The position numbers were made by a program, and so were the translations under genes. DNA of 64,000 bases, from contig CM000154.2 of NCBI GenBank assembly GCA_000004695.1, positions 1,472,001-1,536,000 of the forward strand. Reading direction: 5' to 3'. The DNA comes from Dictyostelium discoideum (lineage: Eukaryota). The notes under the pieces were generated by a model, which was not told the origin of the DNA, made no database searches, and saw only the letters and a list, made by a program, of their open reading frames with translations. This document shows positions 1,461 to 49,638 of this stretch, in pieces; position 1 is the stretch's first letter, and the number at the start of each line of letters is the position of its first letter.

Positions 1461-1519
1461 GTTGGCCTTACAGCAAATTCTCACAAATTTTTACTGATTA
1501 AAAAAAACCCCTTGTCAAC
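1461..1519 (+). ncRNA. Candidate Class I RNA (Dictyostelium-specific small ncRNA)
   Basis: GTTGG is followed directly by CCTTACAGCAA, the 11-nt Class I motif, at 1466-1476. About 40 nt downstream is an A-rich ...ACCCC block, and UCAAC at 1515-1519 can pair with the 5' GUUGG as a 5-bp terminal stem with one G-U wobble. The total length is about 59 nt. A T-run follows. Confidence 0.5.
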
Positions 1520-2053
1520 TGTCCACTTTTATTTTTTTTTTGTTTGTTGTCCTGAAACGGGGATAATTTTTTGTGAATGACAAATTATCCACTATTTAAT
1601 GTATCAGTGAAAAAAATTTAAAACAAGATCCAAGCAATTTTAAATTTCTAAACGATTTCTTTTGTAAAATTTACAGACTAAGAAAATTAACATGCAAAGC
1701 TTATTTTATTCTGGAATCTGTGCTTTCGAATATATTTACTTTGCCCAATTCATATAATTAACTACAATTTCAATATTAAATTTATCGATTTAATTCATTT
1801 AATTTAAAACATGGGTGTATTAAAAAAAAAAAAAAAAAAAAAAAATAATAATGCACTAAATTTTAAAATTCTTTATTTGCTAACTCAAACAAAAAAAAAA
1901 AAAAAAGAAAAACTACTTTACATTTTAAAATTAAAATTCATAAATAAAACTATTTCATTGTTTATTCCTTTAATGTATAAACACTGATTAATCAATATTA
2001 AAAAAAAAAAAAAAAAAAAAAAGTAAACCAACAAGTAAAAAAAAAAAGTACAA

Positions 2054-9823: not shown

Positions 9824-10203
9824 CTTTTTTCTTTTTTTTTTTATTTTTTATTTTTTTTATTTTTTTTCTTCTTATTTTGTTTCTTTTTATATCAGACAAA
9901 AAATCTATTTAGAGGATGAAACTCCTCAAGTTGAAAGATTTATTTTAAAATCCGATTAAAGGAATAAAAAATAAAAAAAAAAAAAAGTATATAAAAAGGA
10001 ATTCCATCAAATAATAAAAAAAAAATAAAATAAAAAAAAGATATTTTGATATTTTAATTTTTTATTTTATTTTATTTTATTTTATTTTATTTTATTTTAT
10101 TTTATTTTAAAATTTTTTTATATTACAATTTAAAATCGTATTTGATTATTCGGGTAAAAATAATTATTGTTTTAATTAATTGAAATGAGCACTTCTTGCC
10201 TTG

Positions 10204-10243
<40 letters not shown>

Positions 10244-10941
10244 AAAATGAAAATTATTTTTTTAAAAAATGAAATTAAAAAAAAAATTAAAAAAAAAAAA
10301 AAAGATATTTTTTGATTAAAGGGATTTTTATTATTTATTTTTATTTATTTTATTTTATTTTTTTTTTTTTATTTTCGTCTGAAAATATTTTTTGGTTGGG
10401 AAAACAAAAAAAAATAAAAAAATAAAAAAAACTAATTAATAGTTAATAGTTAACTATATTGGTGACGAATATAGATTTTTTTTTTAATTTTTAAAAAATA
10501 AAAAAATAAAAAATATTGAAAGTTGATGGTTTTTTTCTTTTTTCCCAAAATGTTTTAATTATTTTTAATTTTTTTTTTTTTTTTTTTTTTTTTGACACCT
10601 TACAATGTGTTTGTTAATATTTATTTTTTTTTTTTTTTTTTAAAAAAAAAAGATTTGACCAGTCAAAAAATTTTGTATTATCTTTTGGAATATCATAGGT
10701 TTTATCTTAAATTTTCGTTTAATCTTTATTAGCGTCATAAATTACTTATTATTAATAATATTGTCATCATTACAATAACATTTATTTATTTATTTTATTT
10801 TTTGGTTTTATAAATAATTTTTGATGGGTTGCACCACAATAAAAAAAAAAAAAAAAAAAAACCATCCCAAGATCTTTAATTTTCGAATGTACACTTTGTT
10901 TTATTTTATTTCGTTTATTTTTTATATTCTCTCTAAAGATA

Positions 10942-12969
<2,028 letters not shown>

Positions 12970-14051
12970 TTAAATTCAAAAAGTAAAAAATAATGTGAAA
13001 AAAAAAATAAAAAAAAAAAAAAAAAAAAATAAAAAAAAATCTTTTTTTTAAATTTTTTTTTATTTTTTTTAATTTTTTTTTAATTAATAAATTTTTATTT
13101 TCTTATTTTTAATTTCCTTAAATGGAAATATTAAAAAATTATCAATGAAATATTTGGAAATACTTTTAACCTTCAAAAAATTCCAATGTAAATAAAGTCT
13201 TAAAATTTCAATCAAAAAAGAAATTAATTTTGTTTTTATTAAATTTCTTATTAAACAAAAATAATTAAAAAAAAAAAAGAGTTTAGAAAAAGATAAAAAT
13301 TAATTCCTATTATATCAAAATGAATTGAAATTTTAAATAAAATTCCAATATATATGATTGTTTTGGATGAAGTAATTTTTTAAAAATAGAATTTATTGAA
13401 AAAAAAAAAAAAAAAAAAAGTTTAAACCAAGAAATAATTTATAATTTCAAAATAAAAGCACTAAACCAATAAAAAAATTAATTTTTAATAATAAATAATA
13501 TTAATATTCTTATCCATTTCATAAAAAAACATCATAATTTTTTTTTTTTTTATAACACTAATAAAATATAAAAAATTAATATTATTTATTCATTTGTTTT
13601 AAAAAATATTAAAAACCACACCAACATCGAATTTTTTTTTTTTTTTTTTAAAAAAATGTACAAAATTGGAAAATCTCCCACACACACCCACACAAACCAT
13701 TAAAAGTGAAAAACATAATTCTTGATAAATTAGTGCCATAGAAAAAACTTAAACAAATAAATACATACACAAATTCAACTAGTATCATACTTAGGCAAAG
13801 GAATTTTTTTATTTTTTAAAATTTTTTTAATTTTAATTTTTATTTTTATTTTATATAACCCACACGTATTAGTTTTCTAAACCATTGTTTTCTATTTTTT
13901 TTTATATTTTTTTTTTTTATTTTTTTTTTTTTTTTTTTTTTATATTTTTTAATTTTTTAAAACTCTTTTAATTTATTTATTGTATAAAAAAAATTTTATT
14001 TTGTAATAAGTCAACAAATATCAATAATTTAATAAAAAATCTTTAGATCTT

Positions 14052-14098
<47 letters not shown>

Positions 14099-14101
<3 letters not shown>

Positions 14102-14735
14102 TTTGGAAAATTAAAAAAAAGTCAATCCAGTAAAACATTAGGAACCTTAAATTATCAAACCTATGATAATAATTATAAAGATACCAATTATTTAACATCA
14201 AGATGTTTTTTAACACCATCATTAGTTTTAATAAGTGGTGATAATCAATGTATGAATCAATATTCAAATGAAAAAGTTGTAGTAAAAATTACAAATACAT
14301 ATGTGGAAATTATGGAAAAAACAAATTTAGTAAGTTTTTTTTAAAATGAAAAAAAAAAAAAAAAAAAAAAACCAAATTAATTATTTTTTATTTTATTAAT
14401 TTTAAATAATTAATTTTTGATTAATAAAGGTTGTTATAAAAACTTTTTTATTAAGAGATGTTAAAGAATTTATTTTTAATGGTCAATTTTGGGAAATTAT
14501 ATGTAGAAATTCTCAAGGAGAATTTGTAACATATAGTTTCAATGTTTCAAAAGCACATATTTTACAATCAAAAGTAATGGAATTTCTTAAACAAGTACAA
14601 AAAGTAAATATTTTTATAAAAAAAATTAAAAAATCATTAAATATTTTAACTAATTCAATTTTTGTTTAATTATTTATTCAAATATTTTAGGAGGAAGACC
14701 ATAATAGTGAATTCATCCCAAAAATTGTTTATTAA
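14099..14735 (+). CDS. Hypothetical protein of about 149 aa in three exons
   Basis: The exons are 14099..14329, 14430..14603 and 14691..14735. The donors are GTAAGT at 14330 and GTAAAT at 14604. The acceptors are AG at 14428-29 and 14689-90. All junctions are phase 0. The product is MFGKLKKSQSSKTLG...VEIMEKTNL / VVIKTFLLRDVKEFIFNGQFWEIICRNSQGEF... / EEDHNSEFIPKIVY. I recognise no domain. Confidence 0.4.
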
Positions 14736-14831
14736 TTTAAAAAATATTATATATATATATAAACCAAAAAAAATAAAATGTAATCCCCTTTTGTACAATA
14801 GAAATTATTAAATTATAAATATTGTTTAAAT

Positions 14832-14869
<38 letters not shown>

Positions 14870-14879
14870 ATTTTAATTT

Positions 14880-15969
<1,090 letters not shown>

Positions 15970-15994
15970 TCTCTGTATTTATATATATATTTAG

Positions 15995-15995
<1 letters not shown>

Positions 15996-16029
<34 letters not shown>

Positions 16030-16044
16030 GTGTGTTGTGTGTGA
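15996..16044. repeat. (GT)n/(CA)n dinucleotide repeat immediately upstream of the U1A start codon
   Basis: tgtgtgtgtgtgtgtgtgtgtgtgtgttgtgtgttgtgtgtg. It is CA-rich on the coding strand, 30-80 nt upstream of the ATG at 15969. Confidence 0.8.
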
Positions 16045-16573
16045 ATGGAAAGTTTTGAGTTTATTTTGATGTTTTATTTAGATCTGTATTTAATACAACC
16101 AATAAATTTATACTGGAAGGGATATTTTTTTAAAAAAAAAAAAAAAAAGAAAAAAAAAAATGTTGGTTTTAATCGATAGAAATGAAAATGAATAAAAAAA
16201 AAAAAAAATAAAAAAAAAAAAAAAATGTTTTCTAATTTTGAAAATTTTTGAAAAATGAATTTTTTTCATCAATTGACAAATTATTTGTGGGGGTTGGAGT
16301 AAAAATAATAATAAAATAAAATAGAGAATAGTAATAAATAAAATAGGAAAAGAGATTAAAAATGGATTTCATATAACACTATTTAATTAATTTAAAAGAA
16401 AAAAAAAAAGTGTGTAAAAAAAAAAAAATAAAATAAAAAAAAAGCTTTTTTAATAGAGGGTTAAAAAACAACTAGAAATTTAAAAAAAAAAAAAAAAACT
16501 CATTCTATTTATAATCATTATTAATTATTGTCAGAGTTAATTATAATTTTTAAATAATTATAAATTTATTAAA

Positions 16574-16616
<43 letters not shown>

Positions 16617-16762
16617 CCCATGGTTTTTTTAATAAAAAACATAAATAAAAATATAATAAAATTATAATTATTATTAATTAATTTTTTCCAAGAAATAAAA
16701 AATAAAGTTAAAAATAGGTTTGTTATTTAATTTATTTAATTTTTTCATTTTATTTTATTTCA

Positions 16763-30692: not shown

Positions 30693-30789
30693 ATGGAATC
30701 TTCAACAGAACCAAATTTACCATTAAAAGCAGAAAGTGCTTCAATTGGAATTTCAATAACCGACACTTGTAATACAACAAATTTAACCA

Positions 30790-30842
<53 letters not shown>

Positions 30843-32056
30843 CCAAATAATAATAATAATAATAATCCAAATAATAATAATAATAATAATCCAAATAATA
30901 ATAATAATAAAAATAATCCAAATAATAAAAATAATAATTTAATTGTTGATAATATAGTTGATTATAATAATTTAACAGTATCACCATTACCACTTAATAG
31001 AAGTAGAAGTAATAGTATGAATAGTGGACCAACAGTTCATGTAATTAGTAGTACTACTGGTAGAGGTAGAAGTAGTAGTATGTCAAATAATAGTATGGTG
31101 ATTAATCAACCTTGTGGTAGTACTATTACTACAACCAATATCAATTCCAATACCAATAATAATAGTAGTAGTAGTAGTAGTAGTAGTAATAGTTATTATA
31201 ATTATTTTAGTAGAAAGAGTAAAAATAATAAAAAAATTAAAGTACCAAGTTCACCAGAATCAATTGGAGGTATGGGAATAATGGGAGGTGGTATTGAAGG
31301 TGGTGATAAATATTCATTCGTTTTAACAGCATCACCATCACCAAATACCTATTTCAATAATAATAGTGTAAATAATAATTTGGCAAACTTTTCATTAACC
31401 GATGAAGGATATCTTGATACGATCGCACATGAGAATTTAAAAGATCCAGCAACATTAATTAGACAAAGAGAGATATCAAGTGAATGGACAAGTAAAATCA
31501 TACCAACCAATTGTACAACCGATCAAGCTAGAAAGAATCTAAAAGCATTAATAAGAAAAGGTATACCAGATAAAAAAAGAAACCTAGTTTGGAAAGCGAT
31601 CATTGGTACAAATGAAGCCGACCAAACTCATTGTTACAATAGTGCATACTCTTCATCATTTGGTGATGAATCAGATCCAAACATTAGAAATATACCAGCC
31701 TTTGGTGGTTTATTCTCACCATCAGATCATTTAATCACTGAACAGGGTGTAAAACAAGTTAAATCCATTCTAAACCTTATTCATACAAATTCACATGTTG
31801 AATATTGTCCACAAATCTCTGACCTTGTACATATTTTAATCTCCTTTATGTCAGAAGCAAACACATACACCACAACTTCATTAATCTTAAAAGATGCTGA
31901 AGAAAATAGACCTCATAGATTCTTAAATATTGATAAAAAAGAATGTGCTAAATTTGTTCATTCTTTTGATCATTTAATTGAATTACATTTACCAAAACTT
32001 CATAGACGTAAGTTATTTAAATAGTCAATTAATTTAATAATAGAATTTTAAAAACT

Positions 32057-32104
<48 letters not shown>

Positions 32105-32578
32105 GATATGATTACAATTGGTTTAACAAATTCATTTGTATTTTCAGATGAATGGTTTTCAAGATTATTTGTATCATTTTTACCATATAATACAGTTTTA
32201 AGAATTTTTGATATTTTATTAAATGAAGGTTATAAAGTTTTATATAGAATTGGTTTGGCATTATTAAAAACTCATAAAAAACAATTAAAGAAACAAAAGG
32301 ATATTGAAAAGTTTTTGTCAACTTTAAACAAATTAAATTTACAAATGTTTGATGCTGATGCTTTAATTAAAGTTGCTTTTGAAAGTATCTCTTTAAAAAG
32401 AAGTCATTTAGAAGATATCAATGATAAACAAAATCATAAAGTTAAAGATGTACCTGAACCCGCACCAATTTATTATAGATCAAAAATTACAATACCTTCT
32501 GTAATTTTAAATTCTGATGATGTAATTATTAAATTATTATTATTATTTATTATTTATATTTAATTTTATAAAATAATA

Positions 32579-32616
<38 letters not shown>

Positions 32617-33171
32617 CTTTTCTCTCTCTCTTCTAGTTTGAATTAATTTGGGCATGGTTACCACCAAGATTATCAGTTGCAACACCAAGAAAATTATTCA
32701 ATTCAGTTACAGATGGTAATAATGTTAGATTATTATTTGAAAGTTTAGTTGAACATACTTGTATTTTAGTAGTTTTAAAATCTGATAATGGAAGTATTTT
32801 TGGATTTTATAGTGACTCTGAAGTTCAACCAAAGTTTGGTTTTGGTGATAGAAATGTCTTTTTATTCACTCTTAAACCTCATGTTCATGTTTATAAACCA
32901 ACTGAAAAAAATCAATTATATACAAGTTTTAAAGAACAATCAATTTCAATTGGTCATTCAAAGTATGTTTTTTTTTTTTTTTTTAATACAAAAAGTTCTT
33001 AATATTAACTTTTTTTTTTTTTATAGTTTGGGAGAGATAGGATTATTTATTGGTGCAGATTTAAATGGTAAAACTGGTGCCACGGAAACTTTTGGAAACC
33101 CATGTTTGAATGATAAAGATCAACATACTTTCCAAACTATTGTTTTAGAAGCATTCACAATTGAACAATAA
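30693..33171 (+). CDS. TBC (Rab-GAP) + TLDc domain protein (TBC1D24-like) in four exons
   Basis: The exons are 30693..32007, 32106..32500 (or ..32521; there are two candidate GTAATT donors), 32637..32962 and 33027..33171. The TBC arginine-finger motif is IRKGIPDKKRNLVWKAIIG. The TBC C-terminal part is in exon 2. The TLDc part is FELIWAWLPPRLSVATPRKLFNSVTDGNNVRLLFESLVEH...IGHS-N-LGEIGLFIGADLNGKTGATETFGNPCL. Confidence 0.8.
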
Positions 33172-33495
33172 AAAAATATAATAACATGTAATTATAACAA
33201 CAAATACCAACAATAGTAAATAATTTTTTAGAATAATCTATTTTATTTTTCTGGAAAAAAAAAAAAAAAAAAACAACCGATGTAAATAAATATTTTTTTA
33301 ATTATTTCTTTTTTATTTCCAAGATATATTTTCACAATTTTTTAATAATTTCTTTATTTTTGTTTTTTTTATTTTTTTTTTTTATACCAAACCTTGAGTA
33401 ATTTTGAAATTGATTGGGGTGATAAAAAATTTCCCGAACACATTTATTATTTATTATTACACGATATAATGCTTTATTTTCTTATTTTTTTTTAT

Positions 33496-34295: not shown

Positions 34296-34560
34296 ATCAC
34301 TTTGATTTTCTTTTAATAATATTTGAAGGATATTTTCAAATTCACTATCGACCGGGTAAATATGAACTATATTAGTGTTTTTTTCCTATTCCCAGGCAGA
34401 AATCGATTTTTTCGAACATTATTTTTTTTTTTTTTTTTTTTTTTAAAGAAATTAATTAAATGAAAGATCTATATTTAGATCTTAGGAAGTTAGTCTATTT
34501 TATTTTATTTTTATCTTTTTCCTAAAAAAATCTTTTTTTTTTATTTTTTTTTATTTTTTA

Positions 34561-35971
34561 TTTTAATTTATAATAATGAGAAGAGAGAATGAATGTAAAG
34601 AAAATGGAGAAAAAAGAAATAATGTAAATTCATTTAATAAAATCATTAAGCTAAGAGTAACTGATGATATTGAATATAGTGAATTATTATTTTGGAAGAT
34701 ATTTAGAAATAGTGATCAATAAAACAATAATGTCATTCATGGATAAACGATTCACACCAAAATATAAAACAATTTCAGATGGAGCTGAAATGATTCGAAA
34801 TAATCAATTCAGTCTATTAAAAGATAAAATTAAAATAAATTGCAGATATTTACAATTTCATGACAAAAGATATTCACAATTTTATGACAAAATAGGTTGT
34901 GAAATTGAAGTTTTAATAAATTATTTAAAACAATCGTTCGCGATAATCAATTTTACAGAAAATTCTTTAGAAACCACCTTTTTGAATATAGAAATAGAGG
35001 AGTAATCATTTCATTAATTATATCAAAGAATTTACAAGTATATCAACTATTCATAGAAGAGTTTAATCATATACCAACTGTTGAGGATTTAAAAATAGCA
35101 ACTTCATTTGGTGCAAACAAATTCATTAGATATCTATTAGAAAAATCACAACTAGAACAACCAAAATTTGAAAGATGATTTAGACAATTATAATTCAATC
35201 TATACAATAGTTACTTCATATAAATCATCAAATTTAAAGAGAGATATGTTTAAAGGATTACTATGCTATTTTAATTGTTATCAAAGTTTAAGAGATCATA
35301 ATAATAATAATAAATAATAATAATAATAATAATAAATTTCAAGAACTAACGATTGATACTCTTTTGAGTATTCACTCGAATAGAGAAAATGGGTTTATAA
35401 TAAAATCAACATCAACAATAAAATCACTATTTAGAGTTTGTAAATTAATATTAAAATTAAAAGTAATGACGAAAACAAATGAATCAGCAAACAACTAATC
35501 AGATTCAGCATCTCCTTCAATTACAATTCAATATATTGAAACATTTATAAAAATAACACCAAAAGAAAAATTAAAATCAACATTAGGAAACCCAATAAAT
35601 TCCAACTTTAACAATGATTGCAAGTATGATGATAGTGATGATGATGATGATGAACAACGTTTTTCTAAATTAATAGCATATCAAATTCAAGAATATTATA
35701 GTAATAGAAATAGAATACCACGGAAAGTATTCTATAAATCAAAAAGTGGTCAAATGGTTCAATTAATTCGTAAACATTGCAGAGATTCAGACTTTTGAAG
35801 TTATGGAAGTTTTTTTAGCTCATTATCAATCAACACATAACCTTTCACCTTCTCCACATTTTAAAGACGCCGAAGAAGTTAGTAATTAATTGCTTGGCTA
35901 ACAAGAACTATTTTTATATACACCCGATTTAGACAGTAGTTTTTTCAAAAGATTTGATAAACAACCTGAAG

Positions 35972-36034
<63 letters not shown>

Positions 36035-37500
36035 GTTGTAGGTCTAATGATGATAATGATGAACATAAAATCTTTATAAAGAAATTATTGGATGAATATT
36101 ATTCGATATTTTGTAAAGATAGATCAGCCATTTTATATTATTATTATTATGATGGATTTAATAATATCAATTTAGAAAATAAAAGTTTATACAGTGTAGA
36201 TTTAGAAGAATATTATGAATCATTTAGATTTGGAATTCCAACATTTGACTTGGTTGGCCATTTTCTTTGTGACTACCTTAACTTTTCATCATTGATAGAT
36301 ATCATGGAATATCCATATAAAAAGTCAATTAATATTTTATTCTCAAACTGTACAGATAGATTAAAAAGATTCGGTTTATAGATAAAGCCATTCAATCAAT
36401 AAAATCAGATGGTTTGCGAAATGTTGAAAATCAATTAACGAATTTCTTTCGTATGGTTGTCATGCACGACGATTTAGAATTAATAAAGTATTTTTTTAAA
36501 CAAGTTAATGGTTATCAATTAGATTTAGGTGGAAATTCACACTACTTATATAGATTTCACCCGACAATTTATATTGGTTCGGTAGATGTTTTAAATTATT
36601 TATTTGAAAATCATAGAGAATACTATTGACCATAAAAACAACTATTATTCCTATTTCGAGAATTTAGAATTATTAAAACATTTTGAAGGATTAACACTCA
36701 AAGTTCCATCAACATCAAGACTTGGTGGATACTTGCAACACTATACTAGAGGTGATAATTTTTAAAATTACGTATCACATCACCAGAAACCGTTTGTATT
36801 TGAGTACTGATTTGATTGAATCAATTTTTTCTTTCTTTCCAGAGAAAACAAGATTCCCAATCAATTTTATTCAATCTACAACTATTAATCTTAAAACATA
36901 CAAACTATTAACAACCATCGTACTTATACAAAGAAATTTCAAAGCCATAAGAATTGGACCAGATGTCTTCTCCAAAGATTTTTTAAACTTTTTAGATTGG
37001 ATATTTACAAATTATCCTAATATGATGAAAATAGGAGGAAGATTTTTTAATTAAAATCAACTACTTAAATTATTTCTTTTTCTAGCTAATAGGTTAAACA
37101 CTGGTGAAATTACTGATAATAATGAACTTGGATACATTCTATGCATCTAATTATGAACATTTTTCATGTTATAATAATTTTAAATATTTAGATTCAATGT
37201 TAAAAAATGTTAAAGATAATGAAATCTTTTTTAGGGCTATTGTAATTGCTGTTGCTAATTCAAGATTACATATTTTAGAATTTTTAAATGAAAAATGTGG
37301 TGATCTTGTAAAAGAAATAAAGAATTATAAAGGATTTAATTTTTTTCTAAATCAAGAATTTCCAAGAGATAATGTAAGGGTATCAGAATTTCTACTTCAA
37401 TTAATTAACCAAGCAGATTCAGAAAAATTATTTGGTCAAAAATCATTATTATATTTCAAATAAATTAAAGTCTTTAAATAAATAAATTTTTATTTTATTT
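34561..37500 (+). pseudogene. Copy A of a duplicated gene unit of about 3 kb. It is co-linear with copy B and carries 1-nt indels relative to it.
   Basis: Segments 34561-34810, 34925-35300, 35950-36700 and 37381-37500 are 90-95% identical to 38086-38325, 41586-42060, 42050-42830 and 44821-44950. Relative to B, A has a 1-nt insertion at about 34677, a 1-nt deletion at about 36365 and a shift at about 36625. These break the MRRENECKENG... ORF and the MDEYYSIFCKDRS... ORF that are intact in B. An (AAT)n tract lies at 35950-36040. Confidence 0.5.
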
Positions 37501-38085
37501 CTTTTTTAGAAACTTTTTTTTTTTTTTTTTTTTGTAGTAAACATTTCATAAAAAGAGAAATTAAATATAATCATATATTAATTAAATATAAAAAGATTAT
37601 AAATAAATTATAAATAAAAAAGATATAAAAAAGATATAAAATAGATTTTTTTTTTTTTTTTCACTGTTTCATCGATTTTATTTATTATTATTCTTATTAT
37701 TCCCATGAATTTATTATTATAGTTAATTCTTTAATTATATATATATTTTTTTTTTAAATAATAATTTTATTTTATTTATTTTAATATGGATTTGGTATAG
37801 AAATAGAACACTCTAAAATACACAAAATGATATAAAAAATGAATGTAATTATTTTTTTTTAATTTTTATTTTTTTTATTTAAATGATTGCATTCTTTTTT
37901 TTTAAAAGAATGATTACATTTATTTTTTGTATTTTTTATATCATTTTATGTATTTTTGAGTACTCTATTTATATGTACTAAATTATATTAAAAATTAATA
38001 AAATTAAATTGTTTAAAAAAAAAAAAAAAAAAAAAAATTTCATTTTTTTTTTTTTTACTTTTTTTTTTTTTTATTTTGGTTTATA

Positions 38086-38334
38086 ATAATGAAAAGAGAG
38101 AATGAATGTAAAGAAAATGGGGAAAAAAGAAATAATGTAAATTCATTTAATAAAATCATTAAGCTAACAGTAACTGATGATATTGAATATGTGAATTATT
38201 ATTTTGGAAGATATTTAGAAATAGTGATCAATAAAATAATAATGTCATTCATGGATAAACGATTCACACCAAAATATAAAACAATTTCAGATGGAGCTGA
38301 AATGATTCGAAATAAATTTTTTGAAAAATATTGA
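38086..38334 (+). pseudogene. Copy B, 5' segment. The ORF is 81 aa, MKRENECKENGEKRNNVNSFNKIIKLTVTDDIEYVNYYFGRYLEIVINKIIMSFMDKRFTPKYKTISDGAEMIRN, then stops a few codons after the insertion junction at about 38326.
   Basis: It is identical in arrangement to copy A at 34561-34810. Similarity to A stops abruptly after ...gattcgaaataa and resumes at about 41586. Confidence 0.5.
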
Positions 38335-38940
38335 CTGTAAAGAGATCTTGAATATTTTTGACTTGAACTAAATGATCACTACCACTATAGTAGTGTAATA
38401 CATCTCTGAATTGAAAAAGAGGTAAGGAACCATCTTCGTTAACTTTGGGTGATTGATAAAGTATTGATGCAGTTTTATACATTTCAAGTCTTTCTACTAC
38501 TTCCTTGATACATTCTGCTGTACAATCTTCCCCAAATTCAAATTCCAGTAAGTTATCATATTGAAAAAGGTTTCAGTAAAATCTGGAAATTTACTACTAT
38601 TATTTTCGAGACGTGGTGTATAGTTGAAATAACAAGAGTTTTCTTCCTTGAAACCACCTACCAAAATGGATATAATTTGAAAAGCACGAGGGCCCATTAT
38701 CATCAAACTTTTTTGGTATATTAACATCATTATAGTACCAACATACAGAGTTCATATAGTTTTTAAACATGGCCTATGTATATTGTATCATTTTTTTTTT
38801 ACATTCTTCACTACATCCATTTTTGATATCAGGAAAAAGATCACCCCTCATGAATTCTTCGATAACAGCAAATGATGTGCCACTGCCTACTCTTTGGAAC
38901 AAATCTTCAAAATTATATTTATCATGAACGCACATTCCAA
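38264..38940 (-). CDS. Cysteine-containing small protein, a paralog of the gene at 39045..39428. It is split over three frames, by introns or by decay.
   Basis: The minus-strand translation gives ...GDLFPDIKNGCSEECKKKMIQYT / AMFKNYMNSVCWYYNDVNIPKKFDDNGPRAFQ... / ...VNEDGSLPLFQFRDV..., which parallels FPLFTQGCTNECKEKMIKITQYVYKYQSNALCWFFNDAKLIRDK...NEDGSLPDYPN of the neighbouring ORF. Confidence 0.3.
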
Positions 38941-39044
38941 CAATTGTATATAAAAAATGAAATAAAAAAAATAAAAAAAAAAAAAAAAATAAAAAATCAA
39001 TTAATAAAAACTTTTTTTTTTTTTTAATTTTTAATTTTTATTTT

Positions 39045-39428
39045 TTAACTATGTAAGGTATTTGGATAATCTGGAAGGCTACCATCTTCATTTAATTCAA
39101 TTGATAAATCAAAACCATGTTCAAAATCTTTTTTATTTCCACGTCCCGATAATGAATCTAGATATGAGCCTGGGGTGATACTTTTATCTCTAATTAACTT
39201 GGCGTCGTTGAAGAACCAGCACAAGGCATTGGATTGATATTTGTACACATATTGGGTTATTTTTATCATCTTTTCTTTACACTCATTGGTACATCCTTGA
39301 GTAAATAAAGGGAAGTTGTCCCCTACTGTCAATATTTCTAAATACCTAAGAGGTACTTTTACAGCACCATCAAAGGTTAGGCTCTCGTGAGGGCACACTT
39401 TATATTTTCTACAATTATAATTTAACAT
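39045..39428 (-). CDS. Small cysteine-containing hypothetical protein of 127 aa
   Basis: The ORF is intact: MLNYNCRKYKVCPHESLTFDGAVKVPLRYLEILTVGDNFPLFTQGCTNECKEKMIKITQYVYKYQSNALCWFFNDAKLIRDKSITPGSYLDSLSGRGNKKDFEHGFDLSIELNEDGSLPDYPNTLHS. It has a paralog immediately downstream. Confidence 0.4.
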   Translation of the reverse strand: MLNYNCRKYKVCPHESLTFDGAVKVPLRYLEILTVGDNFPLFTQGCTNECKEKMIKITQYVYKYQSNALCWFFNDAKLIRDKSITPGSYLDSLSGRGNKKDFEHGFDLSIELNEDGSLPDYPNTLHS

Positions 39429-39817
39429 TTTAAAAATATATGTAAAATATTGGGTGGTGGTTAAATAAAAGCTATTTTTTTTTAAAAAAAAAAAAAATAA
39501 AAAAAAAAAAAAAAATAAAAATAAAATAAAAAAAAAAATTAATAAAAATAAACAACCTAAATAATTAAGAAAAGTTGGGTTATTTGTATTTTACATTTTT
39601 TTTTATGAAAACAACCACTAAAAATATACATACAATTAAAGTTAAAAATAGAAACAAGCAAAACAAAAATGGTAGCAAATTAAAATAATAATAATAAAAA
39701 TAAATTAAATAAAAATAAATTAAAAAATTATTTAAATAAAAAAAAAAAAAAAATTACCATTAAATTAATTATTTTTTTTATCTTCATTATATACAATTTA
39801 ATTTCATTAATTTTTTA

Positions 39818-41272
39818 ATGGCAAAACTAAAAATAATTATTTATATTGTAATAATTTTTTGTAGTAGTATCCAATTTTCTTTTGGATACGAAAAGGCGAT
39901 TGCTTCATTTTATCCACCTCCAGGTGATTTGCATCCCACTACTCATAATTTTTGGGCATGTAATAGTGTCATTAACCAAAACGGTGGATTCGGTCCACTT
40001 GAATGCAATAATGCCGGTATCTATGCAATTTTCTCGACCGCCAATGAGATCATCGACGGTAATGAATACATGCTTCCACTATTTTATATTGGAAGATCCA
40101 CTATAGATGTTCGAGATAGAATTGCTGATCACAGTAGACGAAACCATGTTGATAATGATTTCATTGTGTGTTATATGCGTTTCCCAGCATTGGATGATTA
40201 TGGTTACAGTAACAAAGTAACACCCGTTGAACAAGCTCTCCTTCACCAATTCAAAACTCAATTCAACTCATGGGATAACCTCGGTTTTGATCCACAGTAT
40301 GATACTGCTTATCCAGATGAAAATGGTTTGGGATGGGATATCCTTGCATCTTTTTATAATATGGATATCAATGCTCCATCTTTTAATATTGAAAAAGAGC
40401 CAGGCTTTGTATGGAATGGTCAAACTAATGGACATACTGAACGTTTCGTCCAATCATCATTAAAAGCTGATCAATCTGAAATATTTCCAGAGGGTATACC
40501 ATTCAGAACTGGTGAAGTAGCCATAGAAGGCAGTGATTTCTGTAATAGAACTGAAGAGGATTATACTTTTCATTCGCAGGGCTACTACCTAAGAATATCA
40601 AATGCTTTGGCATCAAGAAATAAGAATTCAAATCAAAATCAAAATCAAAATCAAAATCAAAATCAAAATCAAAATCAAAATCAAAATCAAAATCAAAATC
40701 AAAATCAAAATCATAATCAGAATCAAAATCCACATTCAAACTTTCAGGTTTCTAATGATCAATTAATTGCTATAGATGTTGGTATTGCAGGTGGTGCTAT
40801 CGTTGCAGGCGCTGGTGCAGCAGCAGCCGGTGCAGCAGCCGGTGCTGAGGGTGGTGCCGCAGGAGTTGCTTCCAGAGCTGGTGGTTATATTTCTCGTACT
40901 GCTAGTCGTGTTGGTAACTCTATACGTAGCAGAGCTACTCGTTATGCTAATCAAGGTTACAATTCCATGAGAAATGGTGCACAAAGAGCTGGCAACGGCG
41001 CACGTAATTATGCTAATGAAGGTTACAATTCCGTGAGAGATGGTGCACAAAGAGCTGGCAACGGCGCACGTAATTATGCTCAACAAGGTTATCAAGCATG
41101 GAGAGAAGGTGTCAATGAGATTGGTGATGATATCGCCAATACTGCACATGATGTAGGTGATGGTTTCGCCAATACTGCACGTGAAGTAGGTGATGGAATT
41201 AGAATCACTGCAGAGGAGGGATATGAACTCATTAAAGATGGAGCTGAAGAAACTTGGGTGAAGAAATATTAA
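39818..41272 (+). CDS. Signal-peptide protein of 484 aa. It has an N-terminal GIY-YIG-like domain, an (NQ)n linker, a Gly/Ala-rich hydrophobic segment and a C-terminal tandem-repeat region.
   Basis: The signal-peptide-like N-terminus is MAKLKIIIYIVIIFCSSIQFSFG. Then ...AGIYAIFSTANEIIDGNEYMLPLFYIGRSTIDVRDRIADH....PVEQALLHQFKTQFNSWDNLGF has the GIY / YIG-S/T-x7-R-x3-H / E / N order of GIY-YIG nuclease folds, with an unusually long GIY-YIG spacer. (AATCAA)n at 40621-40735 encodes (NQ)17. LIAIDVGIAGGAIVAGAGAAAAGAAAG is a predicted transmembrane or flexible segment. The C-terminal repeats are RYANQGYNSMRNGAQRAGNGARNYA(N/Q)EGYNSVRDGAQRAGNGARNYA. Confidence 0.6.
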   Translation: MAKLKIIIYIVIIFCSSIQFSFGYEKAIASFYPPPGDLHPTTHNFWACNSVINQNGGFGPLECNNAGIYAIFSTANEIIDGNEYMLPLFYIGRSTIDVRDRIADHSRRNHVDNDFIVCYMRFPALDDYGYSNKVTPVEQALLHQFKTQFNSWDNLGFDPQYDTAYPDENGLGWDILASFYNMDINAPSFNIEKEPGFVWNGQTNGHTERFVQSSLKADQSEIFPEGIPFRTGEVAIEGSDFCNRTEEDYTFHSQGYYLRISNALASRNKNSNQNQNQNQNQNQNQNQNQNQNQNQNQNHNQNQNPHSNFQVSNDQLIAIDVGIAGGAIVAGAGAAAAGAAAGAEGGAAGVASRAGGYISRTASRVGNSIRSRATRYANQGYNSMRNGAQRAGNGARNYANEGYNSVRDGAQRAGNGARNYAQQGYQAWREGVNEIGDDIANTAHDVGDGFANTAREVGDGIRITAEEGYELIKDGAEETWVKKY

Positions 41273-41585
41273 AGGTTATCCTTAATTAAAATTAAAAAAG
41301 CACAACAAAGAATGGCTGAACAAGAAGAAAGAAGAAGGTTGATGCAAGAAGAAAGTGAAAGAAGACGATTGCAAAGAAACAGAGAAAGACAAGAGCCAAT
41401 TAGAACTTATACAACTGCACAAGAAGCTCAACGATATATACCCAAACCTGGTAACTTTGCACGTAAAAGAGGTGCAAGAAATTAAAAAAAGAAAAAATAA
41501 AAATAATTAAAAGAAATAAAAAAAAAAAAAATTAAAAATTAAAAATTTTAAAAAAAAAAAAATAAACTACATCTCTTATATATAA

Positions 41586-42042
41586 AATAAATTATTCAAA
41601 ACAATCATTAGCGATAATGAATTTTACAGAAAATTCTTTAGAAACCACCTTTTTGAATTTACTAATAGAAAAGTAATCATTTCATTAATTACATCAAAGA
41701 ATTTACAAGTATATCAACTTTTTATAGAAGAGTTTAATCATACACCATCTGTTTATGATCTAAAAATAGTAATTTCAGTTGGTGCTAACAAATTCATTAG
41801 ATATCTATTAGAACAATCACAACTAGAACAATCAAAATTTAAAATAAACATATCAAAAGATGATTTAGATAATTATAATTCAATTGATACAATAGTTGCT
41901 CCAAATAAAGTTATTTCAAATTTAAGAAAAATTATTATAAATAATTCTTCTAAATTTTTTTTTCCATTTAAATTATTAAATTTAAAGAGAGATATGTTTA
42001 AAGGATTACTATGCTATTTTAATTGTTATCAAAGTTAAAGAG

Positions 42043-42135
<93 letters not shown>

Positions 42136-42830
42136 GTTGTAGGTCTAATGATGATGATGAACATAAAACCTTTATAAAGAAATTATTGGATGAATATTAT
42201 TCAATATTTTGTAAAGATAGATCAGTCATTATATATTATTATTACGATGGATTTAATAATATCAATTTAGAAAATAATAGTTTATACAGTGTAGATTTAG
42301 AAGAATATTATGAATCATTTAGATTTGGAATTCCAACATTTGACTTGGTTGGTCATTTTCTTTATGACCACCTTAATTTTAAATCATTGATAGATATCAT
42401 GGAATATCCATATAAAAAGTCAATTAATATTTTATTCTCAAATTGTACAGATAGATTAAAAAAGATTCAGTTAATAGATAAAGCCATTCAATCAATAAAA
42501 TCAGATGGTTTGCGAAATGTTGAAAATCAATTAACGAATTTCTTTTATATGGTTGTCATGCACGACGATTTAGAATTAATAAAGTATTTTTTCAAACAAA
42601 TTAATGGTTATCAATTACATTTGGGTGGTGGGGGTGGAGATTTACATTACTTATATATGTTTAACCCAACAATTTATATTGGTTCGGTAGATGTTTTAAA
42701 TTATTTATTTGAAAATCATAGAGAATATTTTATTGATGATAAATATAACTATTATTCCTATTTCAAGAATTTAGAATTATTAAAACACTTTGAAGCATTA
42801 TATATTTCAAATAAATCTTTAAATAAATAA
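41586..42830 (+). pseudogene. Copy B, 3' segment. It contains an intact 214-aa ORF at 42186..42830 (MDEYYSIFCKDRSVIIYYYYDGFNNINLENNSLYSV...FENHREYFIDDKYNYYSYFKNLELLKHFEALYISNKSLNK).
   Basis: It is co-linear with copy A at 34925-36700. (AAT)n lies at 42050-42130. Downstream of 42840 the similarity to A is lost for about 2 kb, and it resumes at 44821-44950, which matches A at 37381-37500. Confidence 0.5.
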
Positions 42831-42954
42831 ATAAATAAAAAAATTTAAAATAAAAATATTAACTGGGTTTAGAAAAAAAAATAATCAAATATATATTATT
42901 AAGCAATTTCAAGTTGATCTGTGTAATCATTGATGCAGAATGGTCTGCGAAACT

Positions 42955-43140
42955 TTGGAACTTTTATCTTTGATCACTATCATTCAGAGGGTGGCTTCTT
43001 ATGTTGCCATCATATAGAATTGTTCTGGATACTGCTTCAATCACCATTACAAAGAGAGTAGGTGATAATGTATCTCCCTGTTTTACTCCTCTTTTTATAG
43101 TAAAGGGGGGTGTGAGTTTTCCATTGATTTCTATCCTGTT
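42955..43140 (-). mobile_element. Degenerate fragment of a non-LTR retrotransposon reverse-transcriptase domain
   Basis: The minus-strand translation is IEINGKLTPPFTIKRGVKQGDTLSPTLFVMVIEAVSRTILYDGNIR...FADH. The GV(K/R)QGDxLSPxLF and FADD-like motifs are diagnostic of LINE/TRE-type reverse transcriptases. Stops on both sides show that only about 180-260 bp survive. The GC content is locally higher than the surrounding DNA. Confidence 0.5.
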
Positions 43141-43540
43141 TTGAGTCTGTCAGTGGTTTCATAATTAGGTTTGTTAGGTTGGTGAGAACTTTGATATGTT
43201 AAACGTTCTAAGTATTAATTTTAAAAAAGTTATTTATCTCTGATTTTTTTTTTTTTTAATATTATAAAATCAGTGTTTATCCATGGTTATTCTTTTTTAA
43301 TTTGAGTTATCTAAGAGTTTTAATTTTAAAATGAAGTGTAGTTAAAATTGGTTTTGTGAATTGTTCGAATAGGTGTTTTTTTTTTTTTTATTTTATTTAT
43401 TCTTGTCGTCAGTATTGTTACTATAATTAATCCCATGAGTTTTTTTTTATTATTATTTTTTATTCTTTTATATTTGAGATGATTATTATTAATTAAATGA
43501 CTTTGAGTTTTTTTTTTTATTTTTCTATGCCTAAAATTAC

Positions 43541-43700
43541 CATATTAATTTCGGTAGGCATATTAATTTCAGCCTAAAATAGTTGGTCTGTGCATGCCAA
43601 AATTAATATGGCTGCTGAAATTAATATGGTAATTCTAGCAGACATAAGTCCCATGCCAAAACTATCATATTAATTTCAGCATCCATTATTAAAATTTTAT
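43541..43700. repeat. Cluster of a 14-nt palindromic motif, CATATTAATTTC(A/G)G and its reverse complement CTGAAATTAATATG
   Basis: ...ccatattaatttcggtaggcatattaatttcagcc...gccaaaattaatatggctgctgaaattaatatgg...tatcatattaatttcagc. There are five copies in 160 bp in alternating orientation. They lie next to the retroelement fragment. Confidence 0.5.
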
Positions 43701-44520
43701 TAAAAAATAAAATTTATAAAATTTATAAAAAAAAAAAAAGCATTTTTTATTAAAATTTAATTAATACTAAAAAATAAGAAATTATATTAGAATTTTATAA
43801 ATTTTTTTAATTCGAGGTTATTTTTTTTTAAAAAAATAATTATAATAATTATTAGAAAATAGGATATTTTATAAAAAAATAAGATTATTATAAAAAATGT
43901 AGCCTTTATTATTTTAAATAAAATATATTAAAAAATAAGATAAATAAAAAAAAAATAATAAAATATATTAAAAATTAAAACATTATATAATTTTTAACAT
44001 GTTTTATTAAAATATAATAAATACTAAAAAAATGAGATAATATATAGAAGGTTATAAATTTTATTAATTATGGTTTTAATACTAAGATGTTTAGAAAATA
44101 ATAAAATAAATTATAAATAGGGAAATTTTATAATATTCAACATATTTTATTAAAATATAAGTAATCCCTAAAAAATAAGATAAAAAATATTAAATGAAAC
44201 TTTTTATTATTTTAAAAAATATAGGAATTGAATTAATAAAAATAAGATATATTATAAGAATACATATGTTAAAACAAGCAAAATTTTATTAATTTTGAAA
44301 AAAAATAAAAAAAATTTAGAAAAATAATTTGGCTTTTTTGGCACAACAATGTCCAATAAATTTAGTTAGTAAAAATTCAGACAGATTAATATTGCCATTA
44401 TGTAAAGGTATGATATCAAATAATAATTAAATCAAAATAGCTTTAATATTAATTATTTCTTTTTATTAAAAAATTAAATAGACGTTCCATAATAATCAAT
44501 TGATTTTCAAGACCAGAGAA

Positions 44521-44665
44521 ATCCAATGTGGCCTCATCTGAATGCATGGCGAATACCCATTGTATCCTGTAAGACCAATTAATTCCAATGTAGCTTCATC
44601 TGACGGTATTATGAATACCCATCTTATAAGACCAATTAATTCCAATGTGGCTTCATCTGTTGCAA
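44521..44665. repeat. Tandem repeat of about 57 bp, about 2.5 copies (ccaatgtggcytcatctga...gaatacccat...taagaccaattaatt)
   Basis: The direct repeats start at about 44523, 44581 and 44639 and are about 85% identical. Confidence 0.5.
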
Positions 44666-45404
44666 ATCGATTTTCATTTATTAACTCTTATAATAATATA
44701 TTAAAAATTAATAAAATTTCTTTTTTTTTTAACATATTTTAAAATTTTTTTTTAATTTTTAATGAATTTTATTATTAGTATTATTTTTTTAATAATAAAA
44801 TTATAAATAAATGATTTATTTATCAGAATTTCTACTTCAATTTATCAACCAAGCAGATTCAGAAAAACTTTTTTGGTCCAAAATCATTATTATATATTTC
44901 AAATAAATTTTAAAATCTTTAAATAAATAAATTTTTATTTTATTTCTTTTAAAAACTTTTTTTTTTTTTTTTAATATCCTTTTCTTTATTTTTTTTTTTA
45001 ATATTGGTTAATCAATGTTTATCAATTAAAGGAGATAACAATGGTTCATATTTTTTTTATGAATTTTAAATTTAAAATGTAATGCGGTTATTCTTTTTTA
45101 ATTTTAATTATCTATTAATGAATTTTAATAATATATTATTAGTAATAATAATAACCATACATGTGTAGTAAATAATTTATTGTAAATAATTTTTTAGAAT
45201 AAAAAAAAAATAAACCAATGTAAAAATATTTTTTTATTTATTTCTTTTTTATTTCTAATATATATATTATAAATTTTTTGATTAGATATTTTTAATAATT
45301 TTTTTATTTTTTTTTTTTTTTTTCCTTTTTTTTTTTTTTTTTTTTTTTTTTTTGTTTGATAATGTATATTTTAATAAATAAATAAAAAGTTTTTTTTTTT
45401 TTTT

Positions 45405-45709: not shown

Positions 45710-49638
<3,929 letters not shown>

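Follow-up and report, generated by a model that had tools for sequence, protein, structure and literature searches.

The tgr loci of Dictyostelium are reported to lie in rearrangement hotspots, and tandem duplication there is followed by pseudogenisation (bioRxiv 10.1101/2025.08.01.668227). Here we describe a locus on chromosome 5 of Dictyostelium discoideum AX4, within a window of 64,000 nucleotides (GenBank assembly GCA_000004695.1, contig CM000154.2, positions 1,472,001 to 1,536,000 of the forward strand; coordinates below are those of this window), in which two copies of a long gene, copy A and copy B, lie side by side. Many minor frameshifts and stops have accumulated in copy A. Copy B, where it survives, is less disturbed in its reading frame but carries three structural lesions. 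In all likelihood the two form a tandem pseudogene pair of a lineage-specific family, partway through birth-and-death evolution.

The locus shares several features with the tgr loci. The paralogues are adjacent and in the same orientation, partial fragments are present, as are duplicated pieces of adjacent genes, boundaries fall both within and between genes, and no breakpoint motif recurs. Moreover, three wild-strain loci (L002, L006 and L008) that carry relatives of a gene cassette found in copy B adjoin TIG/EGF-domain genes. The differences lie in the chromosome, in the family, which is another and uncharacterised one, and in the scale, which is gene-sized (3.0 kb) as against tens of kilobases. 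There is also no sign of ongoing hypervariability here, AX4 and a sister laboratory assembly being essentially identical.

A second point of comparison is the capture of DNA during double-strand-break repair, either as “filler” in non-homologous end joining (NHEJ) or through microhomology-mediated break-induced replication (MMBIR) and fork stalling and template switching (FoSTeS). Copy B resembles the products of such events in that a foreign segment stands in for a short target, with microhomology, with another locus as donor, and with neither terminal inverted repeats (TIRs) nor a target-site duplication (TSD). Its 3′ rearrangement can likewise be described in MMBIR/FoSTeS terms, as a jump forward of 750 bp, a 40-bp copy, a stretch of 2 kb from other sources and a return 110 bp upstream. 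The difference is that the mechanism is read here from junction anatomy alone, in an AT-rich context that weakens short microhomologies as evidence.

Two collinear copies of one long gene

Gapped self-BLAST of the window resolves copies A and B into five blocks, each with E ≤ 1e-47 (Table 1). The blocks are adjacent, on the same strand, all collinear and 86-97% identical, far beyond chance, and the search found no further matches to them elsewhere in the window. Substitutions separate the copies by 2.6, 7.9, 5.4 and 4.1% in four aligned blocks and by 78/1448 (5.4%) overall. Together with the indels and reading frames, these blocks bear out much of the first-pass annotation of this DNA, made from the sequence alone, which had described a segmental duplication with two collinear, damaged copies, the second split by a gene-carrying segment of 3.3 kb and by a repeat-rich 2 kb that replaces unit sequence. 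The true boundaries of the copies lie ~30 bp outside those that it gave, at both ends.

The duplication was, however, described as that of a multi-ORF unit (ORF, open reading frame), and this part does not stand; what was duplicated is a single long gene whose family is specific to Dictyostelium. It is intron-less and ~2.9 kb long, and its two copies follow one another head to tail with 517 bp between them. The repeat begins 43 bp 5′ of the ATG and ends ~66 bp beyond the stop, and essentially the gene alone has been duplicated. In three-frame translation, copy A reads as one continuous coding region of ~930 codons that repeatedly shifts frame and meets stops, and the central block of copy B (41571-42830) stays in one frame throughout, with a single TAA.

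Relative to copy B, copy A has an extra base at 34678, which breaks the 5′ ORF, and lacks one base at 36363 and two at 36623, losses which disrupt what in B is an ORF of 214 amino acids (aa); these are indels to which the first-pass annotation had already pointed. Copy A also has a frameshifting deletion of 14 bp at 35170 and lacks ~63 bp near 35209-35227. Neither copy retains the intact ORF of a functional family member, as frameshifts or stops number at least 8 in A, and B has an in-frame stop in addition to its three structural lesions.

These features recur in an independent assembly (L001, GCA_054883475.1, locus tags ACTFIT_), a chromosome-scale de novo assembly of Nanopore and Illumina reads with a 5.29-Mb chromosome, which is collinear with window positions 29000-49440 over 20.4 kb at 99.7% identity. 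The assembly is part of a de novo Nanopore and Illumina genome set that includes the laboratory strain AX2-214 (bioRxiv 10.1101/2025.08.01.668227) and, given its near-identity to AX4, very probably represents that strain. Because L001 differs from the window inside the locus at 3 non-coding homopolymer lengths and nothing else, with all indels within the copies present, the architecture of the locus and each of its frameshifts are real, at least in the laboratory lineage common to AX4 and L001.

To place the gene in a family, we used as query a frameshift-repaired conceptual protein of 926 aa, taken from copy B where B is intact and from copy A elsewhere, with poly-Asn tracts removed. This protein matches nine Dictyostelium proteins of 547-1076 aa (E 1e-54 to 3e-4, 25-37% identity), eight of which are 887-1076 aa long (E 1e-54 to 1e-18), with DDB_G0268918 of AX4 among them. 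The high-scoring segment pairs cover the query at residues 1-385 and 471-926, and this collinear homology assigns the duplicated gene to a Dictyostelium-only, DDB_G0268918-like family of 890-1080-aa proteins. No Pfam domain was found in proteins of the family.

Several pieces of the two copies are currently annotated as “hypothetical proteins”, namely DDB_G0288413 in AX4 and models of 113, 140, 183, 292 and 416 aa in ACTFIT. The 113-aa ORF at 37122-37463, for example, is exactly XP_636738.1 / DDB_G0288413 and corresponds to the last 113 codons of copy A, annotated separately in AX4. The fragment models of AX4 and ACTFIT should be merged and flagged as pseudogenes.

Two observations concern the history of the family more broadly. 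A motif of the form “acidic run + F/LIKKLL..YYS” occurs twice in the unit (repaired residues 354-385 and 471-495; copy A ~35600-35700 and 36040-36110) and once in the paralogue P0015, and its doubling suggests an internal duplication in the ancestor of A and B. In strain ACTFIR, locus L004 carries a tandem pair of unit-family genes (10001-12847 and 13750-16636; 948 and 751 aa) whose DNA is 67-72% identical to the 5′ part of the window unit; tandem duplication is therefore recurrent in this family.

Polarity of the two copies

Three segments of copy A have no counterpart in copy B (A-only segments 1 to 3, Table 1). As outgroups for polarity we used the intact paralogues, eight family members from four genomes. 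Their alignments continue unbroken across each of the A-only segments, every one of which contains conserved motifs, and no remnants of these segments, even degraded, were found anywhere in the 7-kb span of copy B or in its foreign DNA. Because the intact paralogues align through the A-only segments and B has no remnants of them, copy A is indicated to retain the ancestral architecture and copy B to be derived at all three sites. Nor does copy A hold the insertion of copy B in degraded form, a circumstance that the first-pass annotation had named as fatal to its reading; the intact paralogues align straight through A.

A probable captured gene cassette in copy B

At the first of the three sites, the body of copy B is interrupted by a cassette of genes unrelated to the unit (Table 1). 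The first-pass annotation had placed a 3.26-kb insertion at ~38326/41586; the interruption is borne out, at 38316-41585 and with a length of 3.27 kb, but it is not a clean insertion, as 112 bp of the unit have been replaced. Similarly, of the two small Cys-protein genes that were reported in it, one is intact (DDB_G0288417) and the second has decayed.

Paralogous cassettes occur at several loci of other strains. Contiguous counterparts are present at L005 in ACTFIR (window 38325-41113, 88-92% identity) and at L008 in ACTFIW (window 38951 to ~41582). Locus L009, also of ACTFIW, has counterparts of 38572-39573 and 41282-41582 at 88-96% identity, and it is here that the decayed Cys-rich paralogue has an intact counterpart of 126 aa (95.7% identity to L009 9385-9820). 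The full cassette block is found near a dNK gene at L010 and L011, in two D. cf. discoideum genomes, where counterparts of 482-487 aa match the 484-aa protein of the cassette over residues 1-484 at 87-90% amino-acid identity. No unit-family sequence was detected around the cassette counterparts in L009, L010 and L011 by tblastn, or in L005 and L008 by blastn.

The homology to these paralogues ends on the left at 38325, inside the coding sequence of a small gene, and on the right at ~41582-41591; the junctions with the unit lie at 38315/38316 and 41585/41586. The cassette edges are within ~3-10 bp of the junctions, and each end truncates a different gene. A test for TIRs gave a score of 10.0, where the null distribution had its 95th percentile at 9.5 and its maximum at 13, and does not establish any. 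There is no TSD at the 3.27-kb segment, 112 bp of target having been lost instead, and the bases shared at its junctions are of AATAA type only, 5-6 bp of microhomology with a few bases of uncertain origin. Pfam detects no transposase, integrase or reverse transcriptase (RT) in its ORFs, only a sub-threshold GIY-YIG match.

A transposon was rejected on account of these missing hallmarks and of the arbitrary ends. Because the block is contiguous elsewhere, has neither TIRs nor a TSD, took the place of deleted target and has AATAA-type junctions, the 3.27 kb are best read as the captured copy of a gene cassette that has paralogues at other loci. The phrase “mobile-element-influenced”, which the first-pass annotation applied to the whole locus, thus suits the 2-kb segment further downstream and not this cassette.

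The gene for the 127-aa Cys-rich protein has its closest relatives in ACTFIR and ACTFIW (95-98% DNA identity, 39005-39856) beside a TIG/EGF-domain gene (L002, L006). Its 90% protein cluster has 1 member in AX4, 2 in ACTFIR and 3 in ACTFIW. Large genes with TIG and EGF domains, of tgr-like appearance, adjoin paralogues of the cassette or of the Cys gene at L002 (11616-15373), L006 (11266-15031) and L008 (2031-8199). We also note that the 121-aa ACTFIT model of the truncated small gene (38264-38697, minus strand) crosses the cassette/unit junction into the antisense of the copy-B 5′ piece, and is a chimeric ORF made by the rearrangement.

A deletion between two (AAT)n tracts

Copy A contains two microsatellites, (AAT)12 at 35298-35335 and (AAT)21 at 35972-36034, separated by 637 bp of coding sequence that is ancestral, and copy B has a single (AAT)31 at 42043-42135 (Tandem Repeats Finder, TRF). 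The left flank of the tract in B is that of the first tract in A, and its right flank is that of the second. The simplest explanation is that the two direct (AAT)n tracts recombined or slipped, with loss of the 637 bp. The arrangement agrees with microsatellite-mediated deletion in that the outer flanks fit exactly around a single tract and the 637 bp, which are ancestral, have gone without trace; a departure from it is that the tract lengths would have drifted since (12 + 21 in A vs 31 in B). This deletion is a third lesion of copy B, absent from the first-pass annotation.

Rearrangement at the 3′ end of copy B

Homology of copy B to copy A stops at 42800 (A 36693) and resumes at 44821 (A 37381), the 687 bp between being replaced by ~2 kb. 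The stop and 3′-end motif of the unit occurs twice in B, at 42793-42832 and 44888-44931, as a direct repeat that brackets the 2 kb. The local alignment of 42793-42832 scores 26.5, where 782 null windows gave a mean of 10.6, a standard deviation of 3.8 and a maximum of 24.0. The rearrangement may have arisen in one template-switching repair event, with a forward jump, the 40-bp copy, foreign templates and a return, or through a deletion, insertions and a third partial copy.

The foreign DNA (42801/42833-44820) contains all three elements that the first-pass annotation had seen in it, an RT fragment, a palindromic cluster (43531-43692) and a 57-bp tandem repeat. The RT fragment has the motif GVKQGDTLSPTLF...FADH and matches Pfam RVT_1 with E = 8e-4 and 19.6 bits, below the gathering threshold of 29.6; its motif would make it of the long interspersed nuclear element (LINE) type. 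An origin from a long terminal repeat (LTR) element is not supported, as the fragment is dissimilar to the LTR-element RT in L010. The TRE elements of D. discoideum have an adjacent tRNA gene as their hallmark. No tRNA gene was detected by ARAGORN anywhere in the 64 kb, and a TRE origin is not supported either.

The palindromic cluster belongs to a thug-S-like repeat fragment. Multicopy microRNA (miRNA) loci of D. discoideum are reported to sit in the thug-S repetitive element (PMC6161686, PMC4894637), and the ddi-mir-7131 hairpin (RF03716) of copy B, which is full-length and above threshold, would be such a thug-S-borne miRNA. The block at 43376-43692 recurs twice, inverted, in L009 at 78-88% identity, and no other part of the 2 kb matches the thug-like blocks there. 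Only ~320 bp of thug-S-like sequence are recognisable in copy B, hence a fragment.

Divergence and age

Across 409 alignable codons, copies A and B have a synonymous divergence (dS) of 0.095 and a non-synonymous divergence (dN) of 0.048. The resulting dN/dS of 0.51 points to relaxed constraint and is not demonstrably neutral, the counts being small. The description of the locus as “recently rearranged” in the first-pass annotation finds no support in a dS of ~0.095, or in the structural agreement, down to nearly every base, of AX4 with the AX2-like assembly. The 5′ piece of copy B is less diverged from A than the remainder, with 7/268 substitutions (2.6%) vs 71/1180 (~6%) and a dS of 0.024 vs ~0.11, which we attribute, provisionally, to gene conversion from copy A, 517 bp off.

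A GIY-YIG-fold protein with a signal peptide

The 484-aa protein of the cassette consists in order of a signal-peptide-like N-terminus, a GIY-YIG-fold domain (~60-160), an (NQ)n tract, an Ala/Gly-rich hydrophobic stretch, and repeats of 22 and 11 aa. It shows the alpha/beta fold of GIY-YIG domains, and the family alignment (A1) retains PGIY, YIG, R, E138 (at least 90% conserved) and N150 (invariant). By profile, the similarity is fainter. Pfam PF01541 aligns residues 66-109 with profile positions 2-34 at 13.5 bits (E = 0.089), short of its gathering threshold of 22.6, and a profile search of PDB sequences with the GIY-YIG family returned no match. Fold and motifs uphold the label “GIY-YIG-like” that the first-pass annotation had given the gene, with the PF01541 score below threshold. 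The 1458-aa model at L005 raised the possibility that the 484-aa gene is truncated, which was rejected given the full-length counterparts of 482-487 aa in L010 and L011.

Described members of the GIY-YIG superfamily include T4 EndoII, R.Eco29kI, the N-terminal domain of UvrC, I-TevI and SLX1. The 484-aa protein differs from them in a GIY-YIG spacer of ~20 residues vs ~10, and in the signal peptide, low-complexity tracts and hydrophobic Ala/Gly segment that the known nucleases are without; for the new family, nuclease activity is predicted at most. With 17 representatives among 1.84 billion proteins (window 39818-40612, plus strand; relatives P0026-P0039), the family is apparently restricted to dictyostelids. 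The searchable literature yielded no description of a dictyostelid GIY-YIG family and no mention of the gene IDs of this locus, and the family appears undescribed.

At L009 3532-4137 (minus strand) of ACTFIW, a GIY-YIG-family ORF has no signal peptide and is identical to P0038 over its first 60 residues. Two thug-S-like hairpin blocks (4152-4294 and 5677-5968) lie there in inverted orientation, ~1.7 kb from each other, and the ORF begins at a distance of 15 bp from one of them; thug-type elements and this protein family may thus be connected.

Alternative explanations

Several considerations speak against reading the locus as a decaying tandem pair. Polarity was drawn from paralogues that are 33-37% identical, not from orthologues, and that both copies are dead is concluded from their reading frames alone. 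A dN/dS of 0.5, not 1, means that part of the divergence accumulated under constraint or that the sample is small. The low divergence of the B 5′ piece could reflect gene conversion or a separate, younger duplication, and, given the single AX4 member of the 127-aa protein cluster, the cassette in B may be a relocation instead of an extra copy. Copy B could instead stem from several (two or three) partial copying events of A, independent of one another, that placed a young 5′ piece, an older middle piece and a 3′ piece around pre-existing DNA; the 3.27 kb and the 2 kb would then never have been inserted. The contrast in divergence and dS noted above would fit this, and the 3′-end motif, being present twice in B, might indicate more than one partial copy on the 3′ side. 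Yet all pieces lie in the same orientation and in the order of the unit; the 5′ piece ends at 34802 and the next starts at 34915, and so small a gap, 112 bp in a 3-kb unit, would be very unlikely for independent events. In addition, the homology of the cassette to five paralogous loci ends ~3-10 bp from both junctions, one end cutting a gene, as one would expect of an inserted segment and not of native flanks, and the gap in divergence is marginal (7/268 vs 71/1180) and fits local gene conversion. We consider such independent copying improbable. The opposite polarity, with the cassette-bearing structure ancestral and the 3.27 kb and 2 kb deleted from A, draws on the cleaner reading frame of B's central block and is otherwise a formal possibility. 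It is extremely unlikely in view of eight intact family members from four genomes that are collinear through A at each junction, of sister species that carry the cassette as an independent block without surrounding unit sequence, and of cassette genes that share no relationship with the unit, some of them on the other strand.

The cassette might, on the other hand, be a mobile element, its predicted GIY-YIG nuclease making breaks through which it is copied into new sites, in the style of a free-standing homing endonuclease, with a possible relationship to thug-S. The conserved GIY, YIG, Arg, Glu and Asn positions of the fold would suit this, as would the occurrence of the cassette, whole or in part, in at least 6 different contexts across strains, and the position of the L009 member without signal peptide, 15 bp from a thug-S-like hairpin block. 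However, the 484-aa protein and most of its relatives have a classic signal peptide, which together with the hydrophobic Ala/Gly stretch suggests a secreted or membrane protein, not a nuclear one. The ends of the cassette are undefined, with a different gene truncated at each, 112 bp of target are deleted, and both TIRs and a TSD are missing; and the shared extent varies by locus, which is what segmental duplications within a gene cluster undergoing rearrangement would produce. A mobile cassette is thus very unlikely, and equally unlikely is the proposal that dictyostelids harbour nuclease-driven selfish cassettes, perhaps protein-coding relatives of thug-S that duplicate themselves by break and repair, with the cassette in B as a homing-like nuclear event. 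As to an assembly or sequencing artefact, a region so AT-rich and laden with repeats could invite collapsed or chimeric repeats and homopolymer errors that fake frameshifts; this is contradicted already by the de novo assembly of the sister laboratory strain, collinear over 20.4 kb and with all indels of the copies, and we give it next to no credence.

Mechanism and significance

The decaying tandem pair, then, could have come about as follows. The gene would have been duplicated by unequal exchange or replication slippage. In copy B, the cassette (lesion 1) would have entered through double-strand-break repair that captured or copied ectopic DNA, by end joining or by microhomology-mediated template switching. 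Recombination or slippage between the two direct (AAT)n tracts would have fused them (lesion 2), and the 3′ rearrangement (lesion 3) would stem from a single template-switching repair or from successive deletion and insertions. The locus is probably without a function of its own, though expression may persist for the two cassette genes that are intact, DDB_G0288417 and the gene with the GIY-YIG fold.

The locus itself is ordinary, with no function at stake; its value is as an unusually well preserved record of decay. Within one 10-kb stretch of a genome with 78% A+T, ectopic capture, (AAT)n-mediated deletion and a multi-step 3′ rearrangement are recorded together, with the intact architecture beside them in copy A. 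Given that (AAT)n tracts are common in D. discoideum coding sequence, genes in general could decay through tract-to-tract deletion. Of greater interest than the duplicated locus is the family of GIY-YIG-fold proteins with signal peptides, invisible to Pfam at threshold.

Features and surroundings of the locus

Table 1. Features of the duplicated locus and its flanks, with window coordinates.
Feature	Position	Strand	Description
Block 1	A 34533-34803 = B 38047-38315	same strand	96.7% identity
Block 2	A 34915-35237 = B 41586-41925	same strand	85.9% identity, many indels
Block 3	A 35217-35335 = B 41965-42082	same strand	95.0% identity
Block 4	A 35972-36693 = B 42073-42800	same strand	92.6% identity
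Block 5	A 37381-37529 = B 44821-44972	same strand	91.6% identity
Copy A	34533-37529	+	Full-architecture, heavily decayed probable pseudogene of ~2.9-kb gene (~930 codons); at least 8 frameshifts/stops
A-only segment 1	34803-34914	+	112 bp; family-conserved “NCRYLQFH”; missing in B at 3.27-kb insertion site
A-only segment 2	35336-35971	+	637 bp; first ~90 codons conserved (“...LILKLK...EKLKS.LG.PIN”)
A-only segment 3	36694-37380	+	687 bp; conserved “LDWI..NY.N.MKIG” through to common C-terminus “LLYF”
A-B spacer	37530-38046		517 bp, outside repeat unit; homology ends at 37529 and 38047
Copy B 5′ piece	38047-38315	+	43-bp leader and first 75 codons; frame intact, unlike A; 7 substitutions/268 bp
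Cassette, probably captured	38316-41585		3.27 kb; replaces 112 bp of unit
Small gene, 3′-truncated	38325-38697	-	92-95% identity to L005 and L003, stopping at 38325 within coding sequence
Decayed Cys-rich gene paralogue	38700-38930	-	In-frame stop and frameshift; minus-strand translation
DDB_G0288417	39045-39428	-	Intact 127-aa Cys-rich protein; exact XP_636740.1; no Pfam domain
484-aa GIY-YIG-fold gene	39818-41272	+	Oriented divergently from DDB_G0288417
Small basic-protein gene, 5′-truncated (“MAEQEERRRL...”)	41282-41582	+	94-96% to L008, L009, L010; complete 84 aa in L009
Copy B central piece	41586-42800	+	Single reading frame, one TAA at ~42035; (AAT)31 at 42043-42135; 214-aa ORF at 42186-42830
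First 3′-end motif in B	42793-42832	+	40 bp = A 37441-37487; gives 214-aa ORF its stop codon
Foreign segment	42833-44820		~2 kb AT-rich DNA with transposon debris
RT fragment	42925-43155	-	~75 codons, “KRGVKQGDTLSPTLF...SFADH”, internal stop
thug-S-like fragment	43376-43692		317 bp; three alternating copies of 35-nt motif (43531-43686); inverted repeats
mir-7131 precursor hairpin	43603-43692	both strands	Rfam RF03716, full model length; 85.5 bits (+), 83.4 bits (-), gathering threshold 74
57-bp tandem repeat	44522-44659		2.3 copies, 80% matches (TRF)
Copy B 3′ piece	44821-44972	+	Last ~26 codons, stop, 3′ flank; second 3′-end motif at 44888-44931
TBC/TLDc gene	30693-33171		Upstream flank of locus
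WD40 gene	45710-49638		Downstream flank of locus; reconstructed spliced model of 1276 aa

The G+C content of the window is 17-33%. In a comparison with D. purpureum, the WD40 gene is the sole shared gene, which is uninformative for polarity and leaves the “otherwise conserved gene neighbourhood” of the first-pass annotation without support.

The spacer between the copies contains a near-perfect hairpin of ~170 nt (37795-37980, plus strand), with a minimum free energy of -51.1 kcal/mol vs -21.0 +/- 3.0 kcal/mol for shuffled sequences (z = -10). It matches no Rfam family at the gathering threshold, and could be a miniature inverted-repeat transposable element (MITE)-like inverted repeat or an unannotated miRNA-type precursor. 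Two AT-rich stretches, 33255-33383 directly after the TBC/TLDc gene and 45191-45319 directly before the WD40 gene, are ~80% similar without gaps across 96 nt and enclose the locus together with an upstream gene for a 246-aa protein; this similarity may have arisen by chance, the DNA being of low complexity, or be a remnant of a larger, older rearrangement. Elsewhere in the window, at 1461-1521 (plus strand), lies a Dictyostelium Class I RNA gene (Rfam RF01414, 48.8 bits, gathering threshold 41.5).

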